Shown here piece after piece: positions 10,214 to 44,748 of a stretch of 64,000 bases of DNA. The DNA comes from Flavobacteriaceae bacterium (GTDB lineage Bacteria; Bacteroidota; Bacteroidia; Flavobacteriales; Weeksellaceae). The number at the start of each line of letters is the position of its first letter. Positions within the stretch are counted from its first letter, which is position 1. A program made the translations under genes and the position numbers. The notes beneath the pieces were generated by a model. It was not told the DNA's origin and did not search any database. It was given only the letters and a program-made list of their open reading frames with translations. The stretch is taken from contig JAITMJ010000067.1 in the NCBI GenBank assembly GCA_031277475.1, forward strand, positions 2,107 through 66,106. Direction: 5' to 3'.

Positions 10214-10229
10214 TGTTTCACGTGAAACA
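10214..10229. promoter_or_regulatory. parS (ParB/Spo0J binding site), perfect 16-bp palindrome TGTTTCACGTGAAACA
   Basis: Exact match to the canonical parS consensus TGTTNCACGTGAAACA. It lies 8 bp downstream of the mnmG stop. Confidence 0.8.
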
Positions 10230-10236
10230 TTTTAGA

Positions 10237-12099
10237 TTATCGCCCCAAATAAACCAATAAAACATTGATGTCTGCTGGAGAAACACCACTGATTCGCGAT
10301 GCTTGTGCGATGGTTTTGGGTTTTATGTTGTTCAGTTTTTGTTTGGCTTCGGAGGACAGGGAAAATATTTTTGTGTAGTCAAAATTCTCGGGAATTTTTA
10401 TGTTTTCCATTCGGTTTTGTTTCGCCACACTTTCCTGCTCTTTCTCGATGTAGCCCTTGTATTTGATGTTGATTTCCACTTGTTCCCGAATTTCTTCGGA
10501 ATATTGATTTACTTTTTCACCAATGATTTCAATTTTAGAAAGTTTCTCCAAATTAATGTTCGGTCGGGTTAAAAATTGCGAAGCGCGATATGCTTGATCC
10601 ACAGGATTGCTTTCGTTTTCTTCGAGAATCGGGTTTATGATTCCGGGTTTCAAAGAAAGTCCACCGAGAAAAGATTCTAATTCTTCGCTTTTTTTAATTT
10701 TTTCTTCTGCCTTTTTCATTCGATTTTCTTTTGCCAATCCCAAATTAAACGATTTTTCCGTCAAGCGAATGTCTGCATTATCTTGCCTCAAAATAAGCCG
10801 AAATTCCGCACGAGAGGTGAACATTCTGTACGGTTCTTCAGTTCCTTTTGTGATGAGATCGTCAATCAAAACGCCGATATACGCCTCGTTTCGGTTTAAT
10901 GTAAATTCTTCTTTTTCGTAAATTTTGTTGTGAGCGTTAATTCCCGCAATCAAACCTTGTCCTGCGGCTTCTTCATAACCTGTCGTTCCGTTGATTTGTC
11001 CGGCAAAAAACAGGTTTTCAATAAGTTTTGTTTCGAGTGTGTGTTTCAGTTGCGTTGGCGGAAAATAATCGTATTCTATCGCGTAGCCCGGACGAAAAAT
11101 TTTAGCATTTTCAAAACCCGGAATTTGTTTGATTGCCTTTGTTTGAACGTCTTCGGGAAGCGATGTACTGAAACCGTTCACATAGATTTCGATGGTTTTC
11201 CAACCTTCCGGCTCTACAAAAATTTGATGCCGATTTCTCTCCGAAAATCTATTGATTTTATCTTCAATACTTGGGCAATATCTCGGACCGATACTTTGAA
11301 TGGTTCCATTAAACATCGGACTTCTGTCGAATCCCGAACGCAAAATTTCGTGGACGTTTTCGTTCGTATAAGTGATGTGGCAACTCTTTTGTTCCGTGAG
11401 TTTCGGTGTGTCTGAATAACTGAATTTCTGCGGATTTTCGTCGCCTTTTTGTTCTTCCATTTTGGAATAATCAAGGCTTCTTCCGTCCACACGAGGCGGC
11501 GTTCCGGTTTTCATTCTTCCCGCGTCAAAACCCAAAGAAACCAACTGTTCCGTGATTCCGAAAGCGCGCGGTTCGCCCATTCTTCCGCCACCGAATTGTT
11601 TATCGCCGACGTGAATTAATCCGTTCAAAAAAGTTCCGTTGGTCAGAATTACGGATTTTCCTTTAATTTCAATTCCCATCGCCGTAACCACGCCCGCAAC
11701 TTTATGATTCTCAACGATTAATCCTTTAACCATATCTTGAAAAAAGTCGAGATTTGGGGTGTTTTCGAGGGCAAATCTCCATTCTGTAGCGAACGACATT
11801 CTGTCGTTTTGTGTTCTCGGCGACCACATTGCCGGACCTTTTGAACGGTTCAGCATTTTAAATTGTATTGCGGATTTGTCGGCAACAATTCCCGAAAAAC
11901 CGCCCATCGCATCAATTTCTCGAACAATCTGCCCTTTTGCAATTCCGCCCATTGCCGGATTGCAACTCATTTGTCCGATGGTTTGCATATTCATCGTTAT
12001 CAAAAGCGTTTTCGAGCCAAGATTTGCCGCTGCTGCCGCCGCTTCACAGCCGGCGTGTCCGCCGCCAACAACGATAACATCATATATTTCGGAAATCAT
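10237..12099 (-). CDS. mnmG: tRNA uridine-5-carboxymethylaminomethyl(34) synthesis enzyme MnmG (GidA)
   Basis: 620 aa with an FAD-binding N-terminus VIVVGGGHAGCEAAAAAANLG, MSCNPAMGG, and a conserved GidA core and C-terminal domain. Confidence 0.97.
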   Translation of the reverse strand: MISEIYDVIVVGGGHAGCEAAAAAANLGSKTLLITMNMQTIGQMSCNPAMGGIAKGQIVREIDAMGGFSGIVADKSAIQFKMLNRSKGPAMWSPRTQNDRMSFATEWRFALENTPNLDFFQDMVKGLIVENHKVAGVVTAMGIEIKGKSVILTNGTFLNGLIHVGDKQFGGGRMGEPRAFGITEQLVSLGFDAGRMKTGTPPRVDGRSLDYSKMEEQKGDENPQKFSYSDTPKLTEQKSCHITYTNENVHEILRSGFDRSPMFNGTIQSIGPRYCPSIEDKINRFSERNRHQIFVEPEGWKTIEIYVNGFSTSLPEDVQTKAIKQIPGFENAKIFRPGYAIEYDYFPPTQLKHTLETKLIENLFFAGQINGTTGYEEAAGQGLIAGINAHNKIYEKEEFTLNRNEAYIGVLIDDLITKGTEEPYRMFTSRAEFRLILRQDNADIRLTEKSFNLGLAKENRMKKAEEKIKKSEELESFLGGLSLKPGIINPILEENESNPVDQAYRASQFLTRPNINLEKLSKIEIIGEKVNQYSEEIREQVEINIKYKGYIEKEQESVAKQNRMENIKIPENFDYTKIFSLSSEAKQKLNNIKPKTIAQASRISGVSPADINVLLVYLGR

Positions 12100-12132
12100 T
12101 TTTTTGTTTATGTTTTTAATATTTTATGTGGA

Positions 12133-12148
12133 TGTTTCACGTGAAACA
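12133..12148. promoter_or_regulatory. parS (ParB/Spo0J binding site), second perfect copy TGTTTCACGTGAAACA
   Basis: Identical 16-mer located 34 bp upstream of the mnmG start, between ybeY and mnmG. It is preceded by TTATGTGGAT, a 7/9 DnaA-box-like word. Confidence 0.8.
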
Positions 12149-12217
12149 TTTGTTAGACAAAGAGAAAAAAGATTAAAGACAAAAGACGCTAAATCCTTGT
12201 CGAAAGGGCTTTAATGT

Positions 12218-12653: not shown

Positions 12654-13772
12654 TTAAATTACAAAATCTCGAAAATTGTTTTGGTTGATTAAACGAATAT
12701 CGGAATTGTAAGAATTGGTGAACGTCTTCGGAATTTTTAATTTTGAATTAGAACCCCACTTAATTTCATAGCCGAAGATTTTTCCGTTAAAATCTTCAAT
12801 ATAGTCAATTTCCTGCTGCTGTCGAGTTCGCCAAAAAAAAGATTTTGTCAGAAGAAGTTCGTTGTTAATTTTCTTTAATCTTTCGGAAATTAAAAAATTT
12901 TCCCAAAGTTTCCCCACATCTTCCCTGGTTTCAATGTGGTTTAGGTTTCCAATAATGATGTTCCGAATCCCGTTGTCCCAAAAATATATTTTTTGATTAT
13001 TTTTTATCTCATTTCTCAAATTTCGGCTAAAACTCGGCAGTTTAAAGATAATATAATTCTGCACGCACAAATCAATATAGTTGCTTACGGTTTTCACATC
13101 TACGGAAAGAAGTTTGGAAAGTTCGTTGTAACTCACTTCGCCGCCGACTTGATAAGCCAAAGCCTTGAGCAGATTTTCCAAAATTTCAGGTTTTCTGATG
13201 CCCGAAAAATTTAGAATGTCTTTATAAAGATAACTTTCGGCGAGTTGTTTTAATATTTCATATTCGTTTCCAAAATTATTGATAACTTCGGGATACATGC
13301 CGTAAACAATGCGCAAATTCAGTTGTTGTTGAGATTTCAGATATCCTTGGTTTTCTTCAAATTCTTTCCACGAAATGGGCAAAAGAAGATATTCCCATTT
13401 TCTTCCGGTCAGACTTTCCTGCATCAAATTATTGATTTCAAAAGCAGAGGAACCGCTTGCAAAAATTTGGATATTTTTTATTTGATCGGCAATAATTTTT
13501 AAGGTAATGCCGATGTTTTCTATTCTTTGTGCTTCGTCAATGAAAGCAAAACTATATCCGTTCAAAAGATTTTTCAGTTCTTCTGTGTTTATATTTGCAA
13601 GAATTCTCCGAACAGCCGGATCATCACCATTTAGAAATAAAACGTTTTTTTTGTTTTTCAAAATATCCTGAATAAGGGTTGTTTTCCCCACTTGTCTCGC
13701 CCCAACGAGAATGATGATTTTTCCGGAATTAATATTCGATTCTAAAATTTTTTGTAAATCTCTTTTAATCAT
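12654..13772 (-). CDS. AAA family ATPase with DUF4143-type C-terminal region
   Basis: Walker A GARQVGKTT and Walker B-like FAFIDEAQ. I prefer the ATG at 13772 (MIKRDLQKILE). Confidence 0.85.
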   Translation of the reverse strand: MIKRDLQKILESNINSGKIIILVGARQVGKTTLIQDILKNKKNVLFLNGDDPAVRRILANINTEELKNLLNGYSFAFIDEAQRIENIGITLKIIADQIKNIQIFASGSSAFEINNLMQESLTGRKWEYLLLPISWKEFEENQGYLKSQQQLNLRIVYGMYPEVINNFGNEYEILKQLAESYLYKDILNFSGIRKPEILENLLKALAYQVGGEVSYNELSKLLSVDVKTVSNYIDLCVQNYIIFKLPSFSRNLRNEIKNNQKIYFWDNGIRNIIIGNLNHIETREDVGKLWENFLISERLKKINNELLLTKSFFWRTRQQQEIDYIEDFNGKIFGYEIKWGSNSKLKIPKTFTNSYNSDIRLINQNNFRDFVI

Positions 13773-13795
13773 TGTTTTAAATAAAAAAATCGGAG

Positions 13796-13803
13796 CAAAT
13801 TTA
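13796..13803 (-). promoter_or_regulatory. Bacteroidota-type -7 promoter box TAAATTTG for the AAA ATPase gene
   Basis: The minus-strand TAAATTTG matches TAnnTTTG and sits 23 nt upstream of the ATG at 13772. Confidence 0.4.
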
Positions 13804-13818
13804 TAAAATTTTATTTTT

Positions 13819-13922
13819 ATAATCCACAAATGTTATGTTTTTTATGGAACATAATCCATAAATGTTATGTTTTTTTATGGAATATAATCCATAAATGTTA
13901 TGTTTTTTATGGGATACAATCT
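13819..13922. repeat. tandem direct repeat, 3.2 copies of a 32-33-bp unit ATAATCCA(C/T)AAATGTTATGTTTTTT(T)ATGG(A/G)A(A/C/T)
   Basis: Units lie at 13819-13850, 13851-13883 and 13884-13915, with a partial unit at 13916-13922. Each unit contains the inverted arms CCATAAA / TTTATGG. There are no spacers. Confidence 0.9.
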
Positions 13923-16973: not shown

Positions 16974-19900
16974 TTACTTTTCAATTATTTTAACCTCCTC
17001 CTCCGTCAACCCATACAACGCATAAACCAACCCATCAATCTCCTTATCCGTTGCTGAAATTTCAGCAGAAAGTTTGTTACATTCCGTTTTATATTCGTTA
17101 AAATAATCTTCCCATTCATCTTGTTGTTTAAGTGATAAGGCAAGGGGTTTAAACCCCTTGTTTGGTTTTTTCAATTCGACAAGGAATTGCGCAAAATCCA
17201 ATTTGTCGAAAGTTTCGAGTGCTTTGGTTATGACAGGGGGATTAATCCCCTTGTTAGTAGTGCCTGCAAAATTATCTGCCAATCTTCGCAAAAATTTTTG
17301 GCGTTTGGTTTGTAAACTAACAGACAAGTTTGCCCTATTTTTTGCCAATGGAACAAATTGTTCCTGAATTTCTTTTGGTGCTTTATAAATATATGTGTTT
17401 TGCAAATTTGGTGCAGAATACAATAAATATCCGCCCGACATTCTTAATCCATCAAACAAACATTCAAAAGTATAATTATACAATTTGGAATTTAACCAAC
17501 ACAAAACATATTCAGGCATAAAATCTTTATTGAAAGAGTGTATGCAATTTGTATTGATTGAGGCATATTCGCCAAATTCATCATAAAAAGATTCACAAGT
17601 TAATCCGATTTTAGCGATAATTATTTTTGAAGATGAGTATAATTTATGTCTATTTGAAGAAATTATATTTGAATCTTTTGGCAAAAATGGGTTCAAATAT
17701 TTTTTGCCTTTATCTACTAAATACGAAATTCCCCAATTATTGGAATAATCGTCAATTGTTCCTGTATTTATCAATTTATAACCTTCTATTTCATTGATTA
17801 AAGAAGAATAATCGTCTGCTTCTTTTGCCGTTGAAGTGGCATTTATCAAACCAACCTCTTTTAACGAGCAACTTTTTGCAATGACTTTTTGTGTAATTGG
17901 TAACTTATCGTTCAAAAGAAATCCCCATATAGAATCGTCAATCAAAGAAAGTTTATCTGAATTTGTTTTTTGAACAATCAGTTCTTTTGTTATTTCGTCA
18001 AACTTTCCACATTCAATTTCGTAAGACGAATTATTTTCGTTGTTTTTTAGAAATGTAATTACAGGATATGTTGAGGCATCGGGAAATACTTTTTTGTCTG
18101 AATAATCAATTAGTTGATACAAACAAAAATCAGTTTTTATAAATTCTCTCAATGCTAATCCATAACTCGCAGACAAAAAACGATTTGGAGTAATGTAAGA
18201 TAAACAGCCCGTTTTATTCATTAGCCATAATCCCCTTTCAAAGAAATAGATATATAAATCTACTGTTCCTTTTGCTGTAAAATAGTTATCTTTAAGATAA
18301 TTATATTCTTTTTCCGAATAAGTTTTTTTCAATTCAATTGCATTCACATACGGCGGATTTCCAATCACCACATCAAAGCCGCCTTTATATTCGGGGCGGA
18401 AAGCGTGTTCGATTGTACTGACAAGGGGATGAATCCCCATGTTATAGACGGAGAGATCAAGCGGTGGAAGTTCGTGTTTTATGCGGTTGTTTTCTATATA
18501 TTCTATCGTGTTGTAAAGTTGCTCATTATTCGTAATCTCCTTATAACCAAATTTTTGTGTCCAAAATGGCACACTACGTTCACCCTCTTTTTTGACAAGG
18601 GGATTAATCCCCTTGTTCTGGTTGCAAGCACGAGCCGTTCGACCTTTTATTTTTTTTACAATTTTATCTAATTCCTCTTCTTCACAAACCAAAAGAATAT
18701 GCAAATGGTCCCGACAGATATTATATGCCAACACATTTAAACCATCTTCTTTGACAATTTCGGCAATGGTTTTTGTAATAATAATTTCATCCTCCTCTGT
18801 CATAAATTGTGGGTCTGCATAGGCAAGGGGATTAATCCCCTTGTTATACTTGGCGCGCATCTCTCTCACTTTGTAATCAATCATTCGTTGTGAAGTTCGG
18901 CTATCGTGAATAGCCGTAGTAACGTGAAACGCTTTTTTGTCTTTTTGTTTAAACACTTGCGGAAATTCTTTGTGCCAATCGAAGGCTTTTTCGATTTCTT
19001 CTATTCCCTCTGACAAGGGGTTTAAACCCCTTGTTAAACCTCTTGCCGTTGGTGCAATCAATGAATTTCCACATTTTATATTGTGGCTCAGCGAGTTGAG
19101 TTTTCGGTTCGGTTTTGCAGTTCGCAACCACAACGAAAGTCGGGCAATTTCTACACTTTCGTCGTTTATATCCACGCCGTAAAGGTTGTTTTCCAAAATG
19201 GCGTTTTCGATATTTGGAAAAACAATGCTGCTATCCAACAATTTTGCCGTCATCTCGTCAATCAACTTATGCTCTGTCATCAGGAAGTCAAGCGCGGCGT
19301 TGAGAAAAGCACCACTTCCGCACGCGGGGTCGCAAATAGTAAGCGAGAGTAGCCACGAGCGGTAAGTTTCGAGTTTGTCGTTCAGTTTCTTCTTGGTTTC
19401 TTTTTGTCGTTTTTTATCAGCAAAATATTCCTGTTCGTCAATTTCGAGTTCTGCTTTTTTGTCGGCACAAAGTTTACCGATTGTATTTTCCACAATATAA
19501 GCCGTAATGTAACGCGGAGTGTAGAAAACGCCATCTTTTTTGCGTTTTGAAATTTTCTCTTTCTCTGACAAGGGGTTTAACAAGGGGTTTAAACCCCTTG
19601 TTAATTCCGCAGAAATTTCCTCAATCTCAGTCAGCGAATTTTCAAAAATATGTCCGAGAATATTGACATCTATTTCACTTTTGAAATCGTAATCGGCAAG
19701 TTTTAAAGAATGTTTACGCAAAATTTCGTCGGAAACTACAATATTGTCGAGTATTTCATCGGGCTCAAAAAGTCCGCCGTTGTAGGCAAAAATATCGTGT
19801 TTTTTGCCTTTGTATCCGGTGTTTAAGTAACCAAAATATTTTTTGAAACGCTCGTAAAGTGGAAAATAAGCATCGTTATCTTTAAGCAATTCCCATTGTT

Positions 19901-20699
19901 TTATAATTTCTACAACGGAATTTGGCGGAAGCAAATCGCCGTCTTCGGCAAAGAAAATAAAGAGTAAGCGGTCGAGCAATTTTTGCGTTTTTTTGAATAA
20001 AACAAGGGCATCGACACCAACATCAACAAGGGGATTAATCCCCTTGTTATGCTCTTTCATATCGGCAAACAAATCGCGTTTAAAATTTGAATAATCTTTG
20101 TAAAGTTGGCGAGTAATTTGGTCTTCTTTGCTTACCGATTCGTTTTTCAGTTGTTTTGGCAAATTCGCAGCGATATTTTCGTAAGCCAAGCAAATCCACA
20201 ACAGTGCAAAATCATTTTCCGAGAGTGTAAAAAGATTAAATTCCACAAAATCAATCGTATTCTCAATGTAAAACCGTAATTTCTCAAAATTGGAAATCAC
20301 AACATACGAGGCTTTTCTGTGGTTGTTTTTATAGCCAAAAGCCTGTGTTTCAATGTTTTTTAGGTCGGATGTTTTTGTATCTTTCAGTTCAATCACGCCA
20401 ATCACTTCGCCATTAACCAAAATTGCGCCATCGGCTTTTTTGGAGTTGGTTTCATTTTTTTGTTCGGTAATAAGGTTGAAATTTGGAGTCGGATTGAGTG
20501 TATAACCCAATATTTTTACAAACAATTCACGCAAAAATCCTTCTTGAAATTGTTCTTCTTTTGAATTTCGGATATTTTCTTGAATAGTAACATCTTGAAA
20601 ATAAGCAACATACAATTTATATGCAATAGTGATTTTACCCGCGTTAGCGGCCATTTGCTTTTTTAAAATGGTATGTTGAAAGAGGCTCAAAATAGACAA
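16974..20699 (-). CDS. MmeI/Eco57I-like single-chain Type IIG restriction endonuclease / N6-adenine DNA methyltransferase, carrying an in-frame HUH-transposase insert and eight in-frame palindromic elements
   Basis: Landmarks in order: PD-(D/E)XK nuclease (ADGAILVNGEVIGVIELKDTK), LLFIFFAED, FYTPRYI, motif I ICDPACGSGAFL, CGNSLI, FDWHKEFPQVF, motif IV GGFDVVIGNPPYV, a TaqI_C-like specificity region, and the tail IDGLVYALYGLTEEEVKIIE. The 1241 codons are uninterrupted. Confidence 0.9.
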   Translation of the reverse strand: MSILSLFQHTILKKQMAANAGKITIAYKLYVAYFQDVTIQENIRNSKEEQFQEGFLRELFVKILGYTLNPTPNFNLITEQKNETNSKKADGAILVNGEVIGVIELKDTKTSDLKNIETQAFGYKNNHRKASYVVISNFEKLRFYIENTIDFVEFNLFTLSENDFALLWICLAYENIAANLPKQLKNESVSKEDQITRQLYKDYSNFKRDLFADMKEHNKGINPLVDVGVDALVLFKKTQKLLDRLLFIFFAEDGDLLPPNSVVEIIKQWELLKDNDAYFPLYERFKKYFGYLNTGYKGKKHDIFAYNGGLFEPDEILDNIVVSDEILRKHSLKLADYDFKSEIDVNILGHIFENSLTEIEEISAELTRGLNPLLNPLSEKEKISKRKKDGVFYTPRYITAYIVENTIGKLCADKKAELEIDEQEYFADKKRQKETKKKLNDKLETYRSWLLSLTICDPACGSGAFLNAALDFLMTEHKLIDEMTAKLLDSSIVFPNIENAILENNLYGVDINDESVEIARLSLWLRTAKPNRKLNSLSHNIKCGNSLIAPTARGLTRGLNPLSEGIEEIEKAFDWHKEFPQVFKQKDKKAFHVTTAIHDSRTSQRMIDYKVREMRAKYNKGINPLAYADPQFMTEEDEIIITKTIAEIVKEDGLNVLAYNICRDHLHILLVCEEEELDKIVKKIKGRTARACNQNKGINPLVKKEGERSVPFWTQKFGYKEITNNEQLYNTIEYIENNRIKHELPPLDLSVYNMGIHPLVSTIEHAFRPEYKGGFDVVIGNPPYVNAIELKKTYSEKEYNYLKDNYFTAKGTVDLYIYFFERGLWLMNKTGCLSYITPNRFLSASYGLALREFIKTDFCLYQLIDYSDKKVFPDASTYPVITFLKNNENNSSYEIECGKFDEITKELIVQKTNSDKLSLIDDSIWGFLLNDKLPITQKVIAKSCSLKEVGLINATSTAKEADDYSSLINEIEGYKLINTGTIDDYSNNWGISYLVDKGKKYLNPFLPKDSNIISSNRHKLYSSSKIIIAKIGLTCESFYDEFGEYASINTNCIHSFNKDFMPEYVLCWLNSKLYNYTFECLFDGLRMSGGYLLYSAPNLQNTYIYKAPKEIQEQFVPLAKNRANLSVSLQTKRQKFLRRLADNFAGTTNKGINPPVITKALETFDKLDFAQFLVELKKPNKGFKPLALSLKQQDEWEDYFNEYKTECNKLSAEISATDKEIDGLVYALYGLTEEEVKIIEK
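17141..17160. repeat. REP-like perfect palindrome, TTTAAA type (CAAGGGGTTTAAACCCCTTG)
   Basis: Self-complementary 20-mer, read as NKGFKPLA in the host ORF. Confidence 0.95.
17232..17255. repeat. REP-like palindrome, ATTAAT type, one substitution
   Basis: GACAGGGGGATTAATCCCCTTGTT, read as NKGINPPV. Confidence 0.9.
18420..18443. repeat. REP-like palindrome, degenerate ATTAAT type (two substitutions), at the distal junction of the transposase insert
   Basis: GACAAGGGGATGAATCCCCATGTT, read as NMGIHPLV. Confidence 0.8.
18595..18616. repeat. REP-like perfect palindrome, ATTAAT type (ACAAGGGGATTAATCCCCTTGT), inside the transposase domain
   Basis: Self-complementary 22-mer, read as NKGINPLV between the IKGR and FWTQ motifs. 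Confidence 0.95.
18824..18843. repeat. REP-like perfect palindrome, ATTAAT type (CAAGGGGATTAATCCCCTTG), inside the transposase domain
   Basis: Self-complementary 20-mer, read as NKGINPLA between the first Y1 motif and HUH. Confidence 0.95.
19013..19046. repeat. REP-like perfect palindrome, TTTAAA type (ACAAGGGGTTTAAACCCCTTGT), plus adjacent degenerate half site
   Basis: The full copy is at 19013-19034 and the half-site-like TTAAACCTCTTG at 19035-19046. Together they are read as ARGLTRGLNPLS. Confidence 0.9.
19569..19601. repeat. REP-like perfect palindrome, TTTAAA type, plus duplicated half site
   Basis: The plus strand reads CAAGGGGTTTAA + CAAGGGGTTTAAACCCCTTGT, translated as TRGLNPLLNPL. 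Confidence 0.9.
20025..20048. repeat. REP-like perfect palindrome, ATTAAT type, longest copy (AACAAGGGGATTAATCCCCTTGTT)
   Basis: Self-complementary 24-mer, read as NKGINPLV. Confidence 0.95.
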
Positions 20700-26934: not shown

Positions 26935-28188
26935 ATGGCGTATATAAAAAGAATAAGCGATAATCAATTACAGCGCAAATTGGAAGCGTCCGGTGCGGTA
27001 TTGATACGCGGTGCCAAAGCGTGTGGAAAAACAGAATCTGCAAAACGATTTGCAAAAAGTATTTTAGAAGTTGATATTGATCCGCAAGTTCCGCTGTTGA
27101 TGGAAACCGATCCAAACCGTTTGTTAATCGGTGAAACACCGCGTTTGATAGACGAATGGCAAGAACAACCGAAACTTTGGAATCTTATTCGCCACGAAAT
27201 TGATAAACGTGCTTTGCCCGCACAATTTATTCTCACCGGCTCGGCAAATCCCGACGAAAATACAAAAAAACATTCCGGAGCAGGACGTTTCACCACACTT
27301 GATATGCACACGATGAGTTGGCAGGAACTCGGACATTCTACCGGAAAAATTTCTCTGAAAACACTTTTGGAGGGAGGAAAAATTGATATTTATGATGAGC
27401 CGACAGATTTGGATTTTATTGTTGAAAAAATCATTATCGGCGGTTTTCCCGCTTTGATAGGTAGAAATATTTATCAGGCAAGCGATTTGAATCGCGCTTA
27501 TATTGATTTGCTCGCCGAAGTAGATATGAGCCGCGTATCAAATATAAAACGAGATCCTTTGAAAGTGAGGAATATTTTGCGTTCATTGGCAAGAAATACT
27601 GCTACAACCGTTGAAACTACTTTGCTCGAAACAGACATCTTTGAAAAAGACAATACAAGTATTTCTCGACCGACAATTTACGATTATCTTGACGCATTGG
27701 AACGATTGATGATTATAGAAAATCAGCCTGCTTGGAATATCCATTTGCGATCTTCCGCGTTGCTCAGAAAAACGCCTAAACGACATTTAACAGACGTTTC
27801 GCTTGCCGTTGCCGCTCTTGGTGCAGACAAAAATTCGCTTCTCAACGATTTGAAATTTACGGGTTTCCTTTTTGAATCTCTCGTAACCCACGATCTCCGC
27901 GTATATGCACAAGCAAATGATGCAAAAGTATTTCATTATCGCGATTCTACAAATTTGGAAATTGATGCCGTGGTTCAAAAATATTCCGGTGAATACGCGG
28001 CTTTTGAAATAAAACTCGGCACCGGACAAATTGACGATGCCGCCGGAAATCTCACAAAATTTGCCTCTATTTTGGACACATCAAAAATTTCTGCGCCGGC
28101 ATCATTGAACATCATTACCGGAACAGGAATCAGTTACACCCGAAAAGACGGAATAAATGTAATTTCATTATCTTCACTTGGATTATAA
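26935..28188 (+). CDS. ATP-binding protein, AAA/DUF4143 family (second paralogue type)
   Basis: 417 aa with the Walker A-like motif GAKACGKTE and family-typical blocks (LIDEWQ, FILTGSA, FESLV, FEIK). Confidence 0.85.
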   Translation: MAYIKRISDNQLQRKLEASGAVLIRGAKACGKTESAKRFAKSILEVDIDPQVPLLMETDPNRLLIGETPRLIDEWQEQPKLWNLIRHEIDKRALPAQFILTGSANPDENTKKHSGAGRFTTLDMHTMSWQELGHSTGKISLKTLLEGGKIDIYDEPTDLDFIVEKIIIGGFPALIGRNIYQASDLNRAYIDLLAEVDMSRVSNIKRDPLKVRNILRSLARNTATTVETTLLETDIFEKDNTSISRPTIYDYLDALERLMIIENQPAWNIHLRSSALLRKTPKRHLTDVSLAVAALGADKNSLLNDLKFTGFLFESLVTHDLRVYAQANDAKVFHYRDSTNLEIDAVVQKYSGEYAAFEIKLGTGQIDDAAGNLTKFASILDTSKISAPASLNIITGTGISYTRKDGINVISLSSLGL

Positions 28189-43746: not shown

Positions 43747-44748
43747 CTACAAATCCACAAACTTTTTAAAATCTTCAATTGTAGTTTCGAGGTTTTTGAA
43801 ATATTTTCCGCCGGCAGCGTTGATATGTCCGCCTCCGTTGAAATATTTTCTCGAAAATTGGTTCACATCGGTGTCGTCATCTTTGCTTCGGAAAGAAATT
43901 TTTATAAAATTTTCATACAAATCTTCCATAAAAAATGCAGACATTTTCACGCCGGAAATGCTGAGTCCATAATTCACAAAACCTTCCGTATCGCCTTTTT
44001 CAAAACCAAAATTTTTCAATTCTTCTCGCGTGAGAAAAAGAATGGCAACTTCACCGTTTTTCACCACTTCGATTCTTCCCAAAACCAATGCCAGAAGGTG
44101 CATTCGCGAAATACTGTTCGTGTCCCAAGTATCGGAAGAAATTTTTGCGGGATCGGCACCTTTTTCTATCAATTTTGCTACGATTTTATGCGTTTCTGCG
44201 CTTGTAGAGCGAAATCTGAAACCGCCGGTGTCCGTCATAATTCCGGTGTACAAACATTCCGCCGCGTCAAAATTAATCAAATGTTCTTCGCCCAATTTTT
44301 CGATGAAATGATAAACCATTTGGCAAGTTGCCGGAATAGAAATATCGGAATACACAAAATCAAATTTATCCGGTTGCTGGTGATGATCTATCAAGATTTT
44401 TTTTCCTTTTGACTTGTCAATCCAAGGGGCGACGAGATTTCCGCTTCGGTGCGAGGCGTTGAAATCCAGAATAAAAATCACATCTGCATTGCCGATAGTT
44501 TCCCTCGCTTTTGCTCTTTTGTAATCGGCGATTGTGATTTTTCTTGCATCGGGCATCCATTTTAGAAATTTCGGAAAATCGTTCGGAACGACGACTTCCG
44601 CTTCCAAACCTTTGGCGGCGAGAAAATGTTTTAAACCGAGCGAACTTCCGATGGCATCGCCGTCCGGATTGTAATGCGTGAGAATGATGATTTTGTTTTT
44701 GGGGTTTAATAAACTTCTGATTTCCGAAAATTCGGCGGCGTTGAACAT
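43747..44748 (-). CDS. DHH-family phosphoesterase (NrnA-like oligoribonuclease / pAp phosphatase)
   Basis: 333 aa with NPDGDAIGS, ILIDHHQ (DHH) and the DHHA1 motif GGGHINAAGG. Confidence 0.85.
   Translation of the reverse strand: MFNAAEFSEIRSLLNPKNKIIILTHYNPDGDAIGSSLGLKHFLAAKGLEAEVVVPNDFPKFLKWMPDARKITIADYKRAKARETIGNADVIFILDFNASHRSGNLVAPWIDKSKGKKILIDHHQQPDKFDFVYSDISIPATCQMVYHFIEKLGEEHLINFDAAECLYTGIMTDTGGFRFRSTSAETHKIVAKLIEKGADPAKISSDTWDTNSISRMHLLALVLGRIEVVKNGEVAILFLTREELKNFGFEKGDTEGFVNYGLSISGVKMSAFFMEDLYENFIKISFRSKDDDTDVNQFSRKYFNGGGHINAAGGKYFKNLETTIEDFKKFVDL

Follow-up and report, generated by a model that had tools for sequence, protein, structure and literature searches.

We examined a stretch of 64,000 nucleotides from a Flavobacteriaceae bacterium (contig JAITMJ010000067.1 of assembly GCA_031277475.1, positions 2,107 to 66,106 of the forward strand), referred to here as the window, in which a single gene for a Type IIG restriction-modification enzyme contains an in-frame domain resembling the REP-associated tyrosine transposases (RAYTs, where REP is a repetitive extragenic palindrome) together with eight copies of a short palindromic element. 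The gene is on the reverse strand at 16974..20654 and encodes 1226 amino acids from an ATG at 20654 to a stop codon at 16974-16976, the longest open reading frame (ORF) extending to 20699, and the protein is identical to P0001, which is annotated as 'Eco57I RM methylase domain-containing protein [Flavobacteriaceae bacterium]'. It matches the Pfam families Eco57I (157 bits, in two stretches), MmeI_Mtase, N6_Mtase, MmeI_hel, HSDR_N, TaqI_C, and Y1_Tnp, and its best PADLOC model is REase_MTase_IIG (E 1.5e-245). The domain content is that of a Type IIG enzyme: the nuclease, of PD-(D/E)xK type, is N-terminal, the methyltransferase is of the gamma-class N6-adenine kind with DPxCGSG and NPPY motifs, and the recognition domain is C-terminal. 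The PD-(D/E)xK-like nuclease core ADGAILVNGEVIGVIELK (20382..20435, reverse strand; Pfam HSDR_N and MmeI_N) contains D49, E63, L64, and K65, which are invariant in a 36-sequence alignment, and methyltransferase motif I, DPACGSGAFL (19302..19331, reverse strand; Pfam N6_Mtase and MmeI_Mtase), and motif IV, GGFDVVIGNPPY (18348..18383, reverse strand; within the second Pfam Eco57I stretch, residues 748-872), are both invariant in alignment A2. Judged from its sequence, the gene appears to encode a working single-chain Type IIG enzyme in which all the catalytic motifs are present. The ratio of nonsynonymous to synonymous substitution rates (dN/dS) is 0.05-0.10 for the N-terminal part of the host (0.24 in one short segment) and 0.05-0.18 for the RAYT-like module, in both cases for pairs ranging from 2% to saturated divergence, and host part and module alike are under purifying selection.

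The initial annotation of the window had described eight perfect palindromes in one ORF and none elsewhere, and a search of the window for CAAGGGG-N6-CCCCTTG with up to two mismatches returned eight sites, at 17141, 17234, 18422, 18596, 18824, 19014, 19581, and 20027, all of them within the ORF at 16974..20699 on the reverse strand (1241 codons) and none in the other ~60 kb. Dinucleotide-preserving shuffles gave an expectation of 0.05 ± 0.22 matches, and eight matches were reached in 0 of 100 shuffles. A search of the window with three mismatches added matches outside the gene only at chance level, a de novo listing of window hairpins with stems of at least 8 bp contained no family member outside the gene, and the only CAAGGGG half-sites outside it, at 44423 and 61731, are both without a partner arm. 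The confinement within the window is therefore borne out by mismatch-tolerant search, shuffles, and hairpin listing alike, although the word perfect is correct for the 20-mers at six sites only, the copies at 17234 and 18422 each having a single mismatch.

All eight copies are read on the reverse strand, and we refer to their positions by the letters of the family-wide sites. Palindrome a (20022..20048, AACAAGGGGATTAATCCCCTTGTT) encodes NKGINPLV in the linker after the nuclease domain, in a segment (residues 181-187) where the predicted local distance difference test score (pLDDT) is below 50. Palindrome b, with a 12-nt duplicate of one arm (19566..19601), encodes TRGLNPLLNPLS in the linker before SKRKKDGVFYTP and adjoins or overlaps the pLDDT<50 segment 333-357, and palindrome c, with a degenerate arm duplicate (19011..19046), encodes ARGLTRGLNPLS after CGNSLI in the pLDDT<50 segment 493-532; the intervals first reported for these two, 19569-19601 and 19013-19046, do contain the palindrome, but each represents one full palindrome plus a partial arm duplicate. 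Palindrome d (18822..18845) encodes NKGINPLA in a loop after the first strand and helix of the RAYT-like module (low-pLDDT segments 38-46 in the model of the module alone and 575-588), palindrome e (18591..18617) encodes NKGINPLV between the HUH and tyrosine motifs, and palindrome f, with one core mismatch (18420..18443), encodes NMGIHPLV at the C-terminal junction of the module in the pLDDT<50 segment 713-716. Finally, palindrome i, with one mismatch (17232..17255), encodes NKGINPPV after the target-recognition module in the pLDDT<50 segment 1105-1112, and palindrome j (17139..17162) encodes NKGFKPLA before the C-terminal helix in a coil between helices. Translation reproduced the peptides originally listed (NKGINPLV twice, NKGINPLA, NMGIHPLV, NKGINPPV, TRGLNPL twice, and NKGFKPL). 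In the 1200-residue AlphaFold model, seven of the eight peptides are in pLDDT<50 segments and the eighth is in the coil between helices, so that in the predicted structure the copies sit in low-confidence linkers, in agreement with their earlier placement between conserved blocks.

The RAYT-like Y1 HUH module occupies 18387..18950 on the reverse strand, corresponding to residues 569-756 of P0001 (188 residues, KQKDKKAFHV...HAFRPEY), between EFPQVF and KGGFDVVIGNPPY, and it sits inside the methyltransferase fold ahead of motif IV. The presence of an HUH transposase in the same reading frame, which had been proposed from the letters of the sequence, is real: residues 632-738 match Pfam Y1_Tnp with an E-value of 4e-12 and 46.8 bits, the gathering cut-off being 23. 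The best-scoring NCBIfam model for the module is REP_Tyr_transpos at 52-57 bits, under its cut-off of 80, followed by the IS200 model at 29-33 bits, under its cut-off of 55. The module belongs to a divergent clade of Y1 proteins. The HUH motif DHLHILL (18690..18710, reverse strand) contains D81, H82, and H84, and the catalytic tyrosine motif YIENNRIKH (18474..18500, reverse strand) contains Y151, N155, R156, and H159, all of which are invariant in alignment A1. An AlphaFold model of the module has a pLDDT of 75 with strands and helices in the order expected for Y1 proteins, and its 30 best fold matches in the PDB are all Y1 transposases, including 2xm3, 4er8, 2a6m, and 2f4f (ISDra2, TnpA-REP 4ER8, IS608, and IS200). 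The module thus displays the HUH motif, the single catalytic tyrosine on the C-terminal helix, and, in the predicted structure, the beta-alpha-beta-beta-alpha-beta-alpha fold of the Y1 HUH superfamily. Comparison of a RAYT-positive gene (L127) with a relative without the module (L311) reveals a clean 540-nt insertion at the equivalent site, and free-standing homologues end with the same C-terminal segment as the module. At the module borders that comparison gave only an ambiguous GAA as a target-site duplication, and there are no palindromes at these borders. A complete RAYT-like domain is inserted in frame in a surface loop of the methyltransferase domain. The same loop accepts two different nuclease domains, since in a homologue of 1330 amino acids (P0012) it houses, besides the RAYT module, a DUF559 domain (Vsr-like endonuclease) that follows CGNSLIS.

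The repeat is a DNA element and not a protein-level repeat. On the coding strand it spans ~26 nt, 5'-YAA-CAAGGGG-N6-CCCCTTG-TCA (as an extended search pattern, YAACAAGGGG-N6-CCCCTTGTCA), and the 249 in-gene copies of the family are read in three phases, 141, 101, and 7 times, yielding NKGxxPLV, TRGxxPLS, and rarely QGxxxPC. The third phase had been described as closed by a TAA in both loop variants and never used, which is correct for the window gene, but family-wide it is the phase of those 7 copies, whose loops are free of stops. The 84 genes contain 120 KGxxPL peptides, and AAGGGG......CCCCTT is the coding sequence of 111 of them, against an expectation from codon usage of ~0.001, and the codons concerned are in the minority gene-wide (AAG 21%, GGG 13%, CCC 21%, and CTT 17%). 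The stem varies in a compensatory manner, with G>T at position 3 accompanied by C>A at position 16 and G>A at position 6 accompanied by C>T at position 13 (~30 instances each), and the loop positions 7/12 and 8/11 covary fully. Between the window gene and its nearest relatives the proportion of synonymous differences (pS) is ~0.7, yet the palindrome sites that they share keep intact stems. As single-stranded DNA the copies fold into stems of 8-10 bp with 4-nt loops at -5 to -10 kcal/mol (-8 to -10 for perfect copies).

The element also reaches past the palindrome: Y-A-A precedes it and T-C-A follows it in either main phase, and this holds at synonymous sites too; for example, valine is encoded by GTC in 65% of cases at the element and 9% gene-wide, and the third-codon position L-2 is A in 85% versus 34%. 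An A.C mismatch at the foot sets the orientation of the element, and relative to the coding strand 140 copies have (A,C) at the foot and 10 have (G,T). One gene of the family, L189, holds both orientations, and there the flanks flip together with the asymmetric loop, from which it follows that the flanks belong to the element. Two candidate explanations for these constraints were set aside. Selection for a hairpin at the RNA level would predict an excess of G.U over A.C among stem mismatches, which we did not find (18 G.T versus 20 A.C), and an orientation set by replication (a lagging-strand template) does not fit a constant element orientation across loci whose flank GC skew is positive in 19 and negative in 11. 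The orientation follows the coding strand even where the flank skew is negative, though short flanks make this a weak test.

The architecture of the window gene is a conserved family trait and not a one-off. Among the 120 best homologues of the window protein, which served as our protein comparison set, 105 are enzymes of ~1000 amino acids without the module and 15 have the module at the same site, and strict hairpin peptides (KG..PL, TRG..PL, or QG...PC) number 3.7 on average in these 15, with none in the 105 that lack it. A metagenome scan with the module alignment detected 345 relatives, from which 80 loci were kept, 78 of them Type IIG fusions and the other two free-standing genes for ~200 amino acids. 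The family motifs are present in nearly all of 84 genes, several of which end at contig ends (HUH 81, tyrosine 84, NPPY 79, and motif I 76). In a library of 1.84 billion representatives we found 145 module clusters (E <= 1e-30), 61 long and 84 short. Methyltransferase motifs occur in 55 of the 61 long clusters, and five of the other six were scanned with Pfam, four matching Eco57I and one (P0278) Y1_Tnp only; other host proteins for the module could accordingly be rejected among the long representatives checked, which are of Eco57I/MmeI type save for the Y1_Tnp match of P0278.

Within the 80 loci, 241 palindromes are inside RAYT-bearing ORFs (257 kb) and 8 are in the flanks (645 kb). Seven of these eight make up a tandem array (107-bp x7) immediately behind the stop codon of a fusion gene (L147), and the remaining one is in the frameshifted continuation of the RAYT-bearing gene at another locus (L151). 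Because the flank copies are a 3' array and a frameshifted part, every copy in the 80 loci belongs to the transcription unit of the RAYT-bearing gene, and the same confinement is seen in four species-representative genomes (L036, L050, L093, and L108). The array itself (L147:11941-12709) consists of 7.2 tandem units of 107 bp that start from the stop codon of the fusion gene, and the palindrome ends each unit.

Across 70 non-redundant family genes, and allowing up to three mismatches, the copies occupy ~11 discrete hot spots. Site e, between the HUH and tyrosine motifs, is occupied in 57 genes, site f in 39, site b in 21, site c in 17, site i in 15, site j in 13, site d in 11, and site a in 9, and the number of copies per gene varies from 0 to 11 among related genes. 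At the end of one contig (L032:6182-6374) there are at least four tandem 57-bp units with an ACATGT-loop palindrome, read as (TSLRIGEASETRGHVPLSG)n in a RAYT-like ORF, and this array looks like an expanded site e.

Free-standing genes of the same clade, such as that of Fluviicola taffensis, encode ~190-220 amino acids and are single-copy, with valS as neighbour in Fluviicola taffensis and L207 and with aroA and mutS on either side in L203-206. These slots are conserved, downstream of valS in Fluviicola-like genomes and at aroA/mutS in marine genomes (L201:10001-10555, L207:10001-10594, and L203:10001-10600), which fits long-term vertical inheritance of the kind expected of a single-copy domesticated RAYT. 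The peptide xKGINPL(D/G/E) is found at site e in 55 of 72 free-standing relatives, and the same DNA palindrome is present there in Fluviicola taffensis and in the marine loci at a protein identity of only 53-58%. Because the same site is occupied in free-standing relatives, the site-e copy is probably an ancestral part of the gene. No further copies were found within ±10 kb of the free-standing relatives.

Several observations concern how the copies multiply within a gene. Loop sequences coincide within a gene far more often (0.356) than when loops are shuffled among genes inside site classes (0.086), and 0 of 2000 permutations reached the observed figure. The gene L189 has a REPIN-like composite unit, comprising an inverted hairpin, a related 37-nt spacer, and a hairpin, at three separate sites, and the copies of the window gene are singletons or arm duplicates. 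Two genes that are 98% identical (L153 and L156) differ by in-frame copy-number changes of repeat units: 21 nt in hairpin-arm units, 9 nt in the interval that separates two palindromes, and 12 nt within a simple repeat close by. The RAYT-positive P0115 (at L127) and the RAYT-less P0005 (at L311) are 84.7% identical in nucleotides across the N-terminal part and differ there by hairpin blocks b and c, in addition to the clean 540-nt module. The RAYT-less allele of this pair (L311:6066-9039) is the closest to P0115 and is followed directly by two reverse-transcriptase (RVT_1) genes, so its surroundings may be a defence island.

On a tree of the N-terminal part, RAYT-positive and RAYT-less alleles are interspersed, and the window gene is itself a mosaic. 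Its N-terminal part, RAYT module, and C-terminal tail are closest to the RAYT-positive P0010, P0012, P0013, and P0021 (76-92%, mostly 80-92%), and motif IV and the recognition module, between palindromes f and i, are 87-90% identical to the RAYT-less P0002, P0005, and P0007 and 28% identical to P0010, P0012, P0013, and P0021. The interspersed tree and the mosaic window gene together imply that the module moves with its hairpins between alleles by recombination, or is gained and lost. A requirement for palindromes as breakpoints of recognition-domain swaps was considered and rejected, as the same swaps are found in lineages with only the site-e palindrome.

We favour, with moderate confidence, a model of copying in cis: the HUH domain would multiply its cognate hairpin inside its own transcription unit, and only those insertions would survive selection that are in frame, free of stops, and located in linkers. 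The embedded domain would bind and cut the hairpin on single-stranded DNA, as do the TnpA enzymes of IS200/IS605 and the E. coli TnpA-REP, and the hairpin would be copied locally, inside the transcription unit that encodes the domain, with the limitation to cis perhaps arising because the nascent protein is held beside its own transcribed and transiently single-stranded gene. The probably ancestral copy between the HUH and tyrosine motifs would be the resident seed, and selection on the restriction enzyme would purge insertions that break the frame, bring in stops, or hit a folded core, leaving the in-frame copies of inter-domain linkers to survive, while local tandem copies may arise by hairpin-promoted slippage. 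The predicted outcome is a repeat and enzyme pair in one ORF that spreads and recombines together with the restriction gene. A stricter form of the model, in which the permanently fused domain copies its own hairpin only into its transcription unit through a cis action coupled to transcription or translation on the exposed coding strand, is put forward tentatively, as a possibility that we would not yet call probable.

The most serious competitor, though in our judgment an unlikely one, is that the repeats spread without HUH catalysis, the site-e seed being copied by slippage, template switching, and ectopic gene conversion while the HUH domain persists because of some other function in the enzyme. 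In its favour, tandem duplications of arm units and of whole units are frequent and polymorphic, the loops are fully palindromic even where the bases cannot pair in a hairpin, the result expected if the template were switched between arms, the link to the RAYT would be automatic if the seed lies in its module, and free-standing RAYTs do not spread their copy. However, copies are found up to 2 kb from the seed at ~11 discrete sites in one preferred orientation, the composite doublet of L189 with its spacer at three distant sites looks like transposition and not slippage, seed-bearing free-standing genes show no copies in the adjacent and tolerant intergenic DNA, and 13 of the 70 fusion genes have lost the seed and yet keep other copies. 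Less plausible still is the proposal that the palindromes are recombination sites at which the HUH domain excises, inverts, or exchanges the recognition domain or the RAYT module, or switches the enzyme on and off. The position of the copies at domain boundaries, the bracketing of the swapped module of the window gene by palindromes f and i, and the interspersed alleles of the N-terminal tree would all suit it, but the same swaps have occurred between 95%-identical backbones that have the site-e palindrome only and whose breakpoints are palindrome-free (L198/L200/L197 and L167/L177), so homologous recombination in the conserved flanks suffices, and neither the donor alleles of the window's swapped module nor the borders of the RAYT module carry palindromes. 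We would grant a similarly small probability to the hairpins being cis-regulatory sites, bound by the HUH domain on mRNA or transcribed DNA to tune a potentially toxic enzyme. Such a role is consistent with restriction to the transcription unit, including the 3' array after the stop codon, with a constant orientation relative to the coding strand, and with the retention of one copy in free-standing RAYT genes over 50-60% protein identity, but the mRNA strand shows no excess of G.U wobble pairs, the conserved foot mismatch is A.C on that strand, a copy number between 0 and 11 among related genes is odd for a tuned operator, and the T-run typical of terminators is absent.

Two further explanations, which the initial annotation had itself raised as possible refutations, can be given very little credence. 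The first, a protein-level Gly/Pro linker motif NKGINPLV in which the palindrome is incidental, could draw on the occurrence of KGINPL at one position in the 55 free-standing relatives and on the suitability of Gly/Pro-rich peptides for linkers. It is contradicted by the unrelated peptides that the three phases produce, by the uniform use of minority codons in 111 of 120 KGxxPL peptides, by flank bases fixed at synonymous sites, and by stem changes that are compensatory at the DNA level, and the 105 homologues without a RAYT, where a shared protein motif might have been sought, are without the peptide. The second, a dead gene overrun by a genome-wide REP family, is scarcely credible and has nothing in its favour beyond the local density of repeats. 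The 1226-residue ORF is intact with all catalytic motifs, the low dN/dS of host and module is not that of a decaying gene, and the palindrome is not abundant in intergenic DNA, being absent from the 60 kb of the window outside the gene, where the housekeeping neighbours carry no repeats, and limited in the 645 kb of relatives' flanks to the 8 copies of the same transcription unit.

A number of considerations weigh against the model of copying in cis by the HUH domain. The relation of hairpin and domain as a cognate pair is drawn from their association in sequence, the module scores below the NCBIfam cut-off for RAYTs, and the GTAG or CGTC tag of classical REPs is absent from the element, which has a YAA foot on the left and TCA on the right. 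The covariation of loop positions 8/11, which cannot pair in a hairpin with a 4-nt loop, hints at symmetric recognition of double-stranded DNA or at a different generating process. A clean pair of empty and filled sites among near-identical alleles was not found, only copy-number changes and replaced linkers. The free-standing relatives keep a single copy and do not spread it, which indicates that the domain alone is insufficient for proliferation, and proliferation appears to be a property of some fusion lineages: those from outside termite samples often have just one or two copies (the metagenomes of L121-L134 are presumably termite-gut samples), and 3 of the 70 genes are without any copy and 13 without a site-e copy even with up to three mismatches. 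In the source genome, absence of the element outside the gene holds for the 64-kb window and is not proven for the whole genome.

Similar palindromes are found elsewhere. A 22-mer, ACAAGGGG-N6-CCCCTTGT, is distributed across phyla in species-representative genomes (L001-L120; cyanobacteria, Chloroflexi, Ignavibacteria, Nitrospira, and others, for example at L013:7478, L016:4266, and L047:1299), with a centre that is nearly always palindromic (CTTAAG 43 times, which for a fully specified 22-mer is far above chance, and TTGCAA 16 times). It is mostly intergenic, with several copies in some genomes, and has symmetric flanks (GA...TC), unlike the in-gene element. It was not counted as part of the same system, on the basis of its intergenic location, its symmetric flanks, and the lack of a same-clade RAYT within 8 kb. 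Viral contigs of IMG/VR (L209-L310) contributed 102 matches, mostly with a TTGCAA loop and 51 of them with the variant ACAAGGGGTTGCAACCCCTTGT, and some contigs have several copies (four in L234, and others in L238, L248, and L277); the RAYT module was not found on the palindrome-bearing viral contigs.

In the window, the neighbours of the restriction gene are the housekeeping genes for MurF-Alr, UvrC, a patatin/Omp85 protein, and MnmG. Two small downstream ORFs (91 residues, and a 104-residue helix-turn-helix protein) are not conserved beside relatives, with one match in 84 loci. The perfect palindrome TGTTTCACGTGAAACA at 10214-10229 and 12132-12149 flanks mnmG (10237-12099) on both sides and may be an operator-like site, and adjacent copies of TTTATGGAA(C/T)ATAATCCATAAA are present at 13841-13862 and 13874-13895 in the short spacer between a DUF4143 ATPase gene and patatin/Omp85. 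Paralogous AAA_14/DUF4143 ATPase genes are located on opposite strands 13 kb apart (12654-13829 and 26935-28188).

Apart from its insertions, the window protein resembles the MmeI/Eco57I-type enzymes, in which nuclease, helical spacer, gamma-class N6-adenine methyltransferase, recognition domain, and C-terminal helix follow in the same order, and the homologues of ~1000 amino acids of this type are 59-74% identical to it in the best local alignment (74-83% for the closest, P0002). It differs from them in the extra 188-residue HUH domain between CGNSL...EFPQVF and motif IV and in the hairpin-encoded linkers, and it illustrates that the methyltransferase fold of a Type IIG enzyme tolerates a whole additional nuclease domain. 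A defence enzyme that also acts on single-stranded DNA is therefore conceivable; if the model is true, the HUH domain together with its hairpins might endow the enzyme with a new activity, directed at single-stranded or hairpin DNA. In fold, catalytic motifs, and the strand specificity of its element the module is similar to IS200/IS605 transposases (IS608 and ISDra2 TnpA), and the same chemistry on single-stranded DNA hairpins would be expected, but the transposase is not bracketed by distinct left and right ends, the gene does not occur in multiple identical copies, and the module is fixed in one host gene. The HUH initiators of phiX174 (the gene A origin) and pT181 (the repC origin) have their nick site inside their own gene, which favours action in cis. 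Those are single-site origins of replicons, whereas the present gene has many sites and no replicon.

Rickettsia palindromic elements (RPEs), reportedly described by Ogata and colleagues in 2000, are the classic in-frame case. At ~100-150 bp, they are specific to Rickettsia and occur both in numerous unrelated genes and in intergenic DNA, and we know of no cognate transposase in the same gene as an RPE. The present units of 24-26 nt belong to one gene family of Bacteroidota and share their gene with a candidate enzyme, so the likeness to RPEs that was suggested at the outset is a functional one, in the in-frame tolerance of palindromes in loops and linkers of functional genes, and extends no further. 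The same tolerance is displayed by the intragenic GTAG/CGTC REPs catalogued by Di Nocera et al. 2013 (PMC3733652).

The closest precedent is that of in-frame REPs inside RAYT genes themselves, already known for RAYT subclass 2.4 (Bertels group 4) from Quentin et al. 2018 (PMC6006769), in which long fusion proteins were set aside and a Type IIG host was therefore not described. Subclass 2.4 includes taxa of Bacteroidetes, and its insertion region is a peripheral variable loop (PMC6006769); here too a copy is inserted in frame, with site e occupied in 57 of the 70 fusion genes and in 55 of the 72 that are free-standing. The REPs of subclass 2.4, whose foot is GT[AG]G, also flank the gene and are found at other genomic positions, whereas none of the present hairpins was seen outside the transcription unit. 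The signature here, by motif comparison only, is DH[LMI]H / WTQ / YIxNN[RK], compared with NH[IFV]H / WQ / YIxNNP in subclass 2.4. Palindromes do not flank the module, the window gene, or the free-standing relatives as REPs in inverted orientation would in a REPtron, the 8 copies at the 80 loci being on the 3' side or in a frameshifted part.

With REP/RAYT systems in general, such as the E. coli TnpA-REP (PDB 4ER8), the family shares a single-copy, vertically inherited Y1 HUH protein and short GC-rich hairpins, for which coevolution would be expected, and the inverted doublets of L189 recall REPINs. Classical REPs are extragenic, number hundreds per genome, have a GTAG tag, and flank the RAYT gene; the present repeats are intragenic and translated, reach at most 11 per gene, have a YAA...TCA foot, and are accompanied by a RAYT that is a domain of another enzyme. 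In the literature searched we found no description of a Type IIG-RAYT fusion, of hairpins limited to the gene that encodes the domain, or of a YAA...TCA foot in place of GTAG, but the architecture is visible in databases, where a label on a single member (P0093) reads 'methylase subunit / RayT'. Annotators should read the NKGxxPLV and TRGxxPLS islands, like the variation in length among these enzymes, as products of a DNA repeat and not as protein motifs. The family indicates that a mobile repeat can have one gene as its whole range and persist solely in the form of translated linker peptides, and, if the model is true, enzyme, repeats, and their only habitat would be one ORF, a self-contained replicator travelling with a defence gene. 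RAYTs have been proposed since about 2010 to mobilise REPs, although to our knowledge such mobilisation has never been shown in vivo. Compared with the hundreds of dispersed copies and very low rates of those systems, the present gene, with the enzyme, all its repeats, and all permissive targets within 3.7 kb, offers a compact and testable case.

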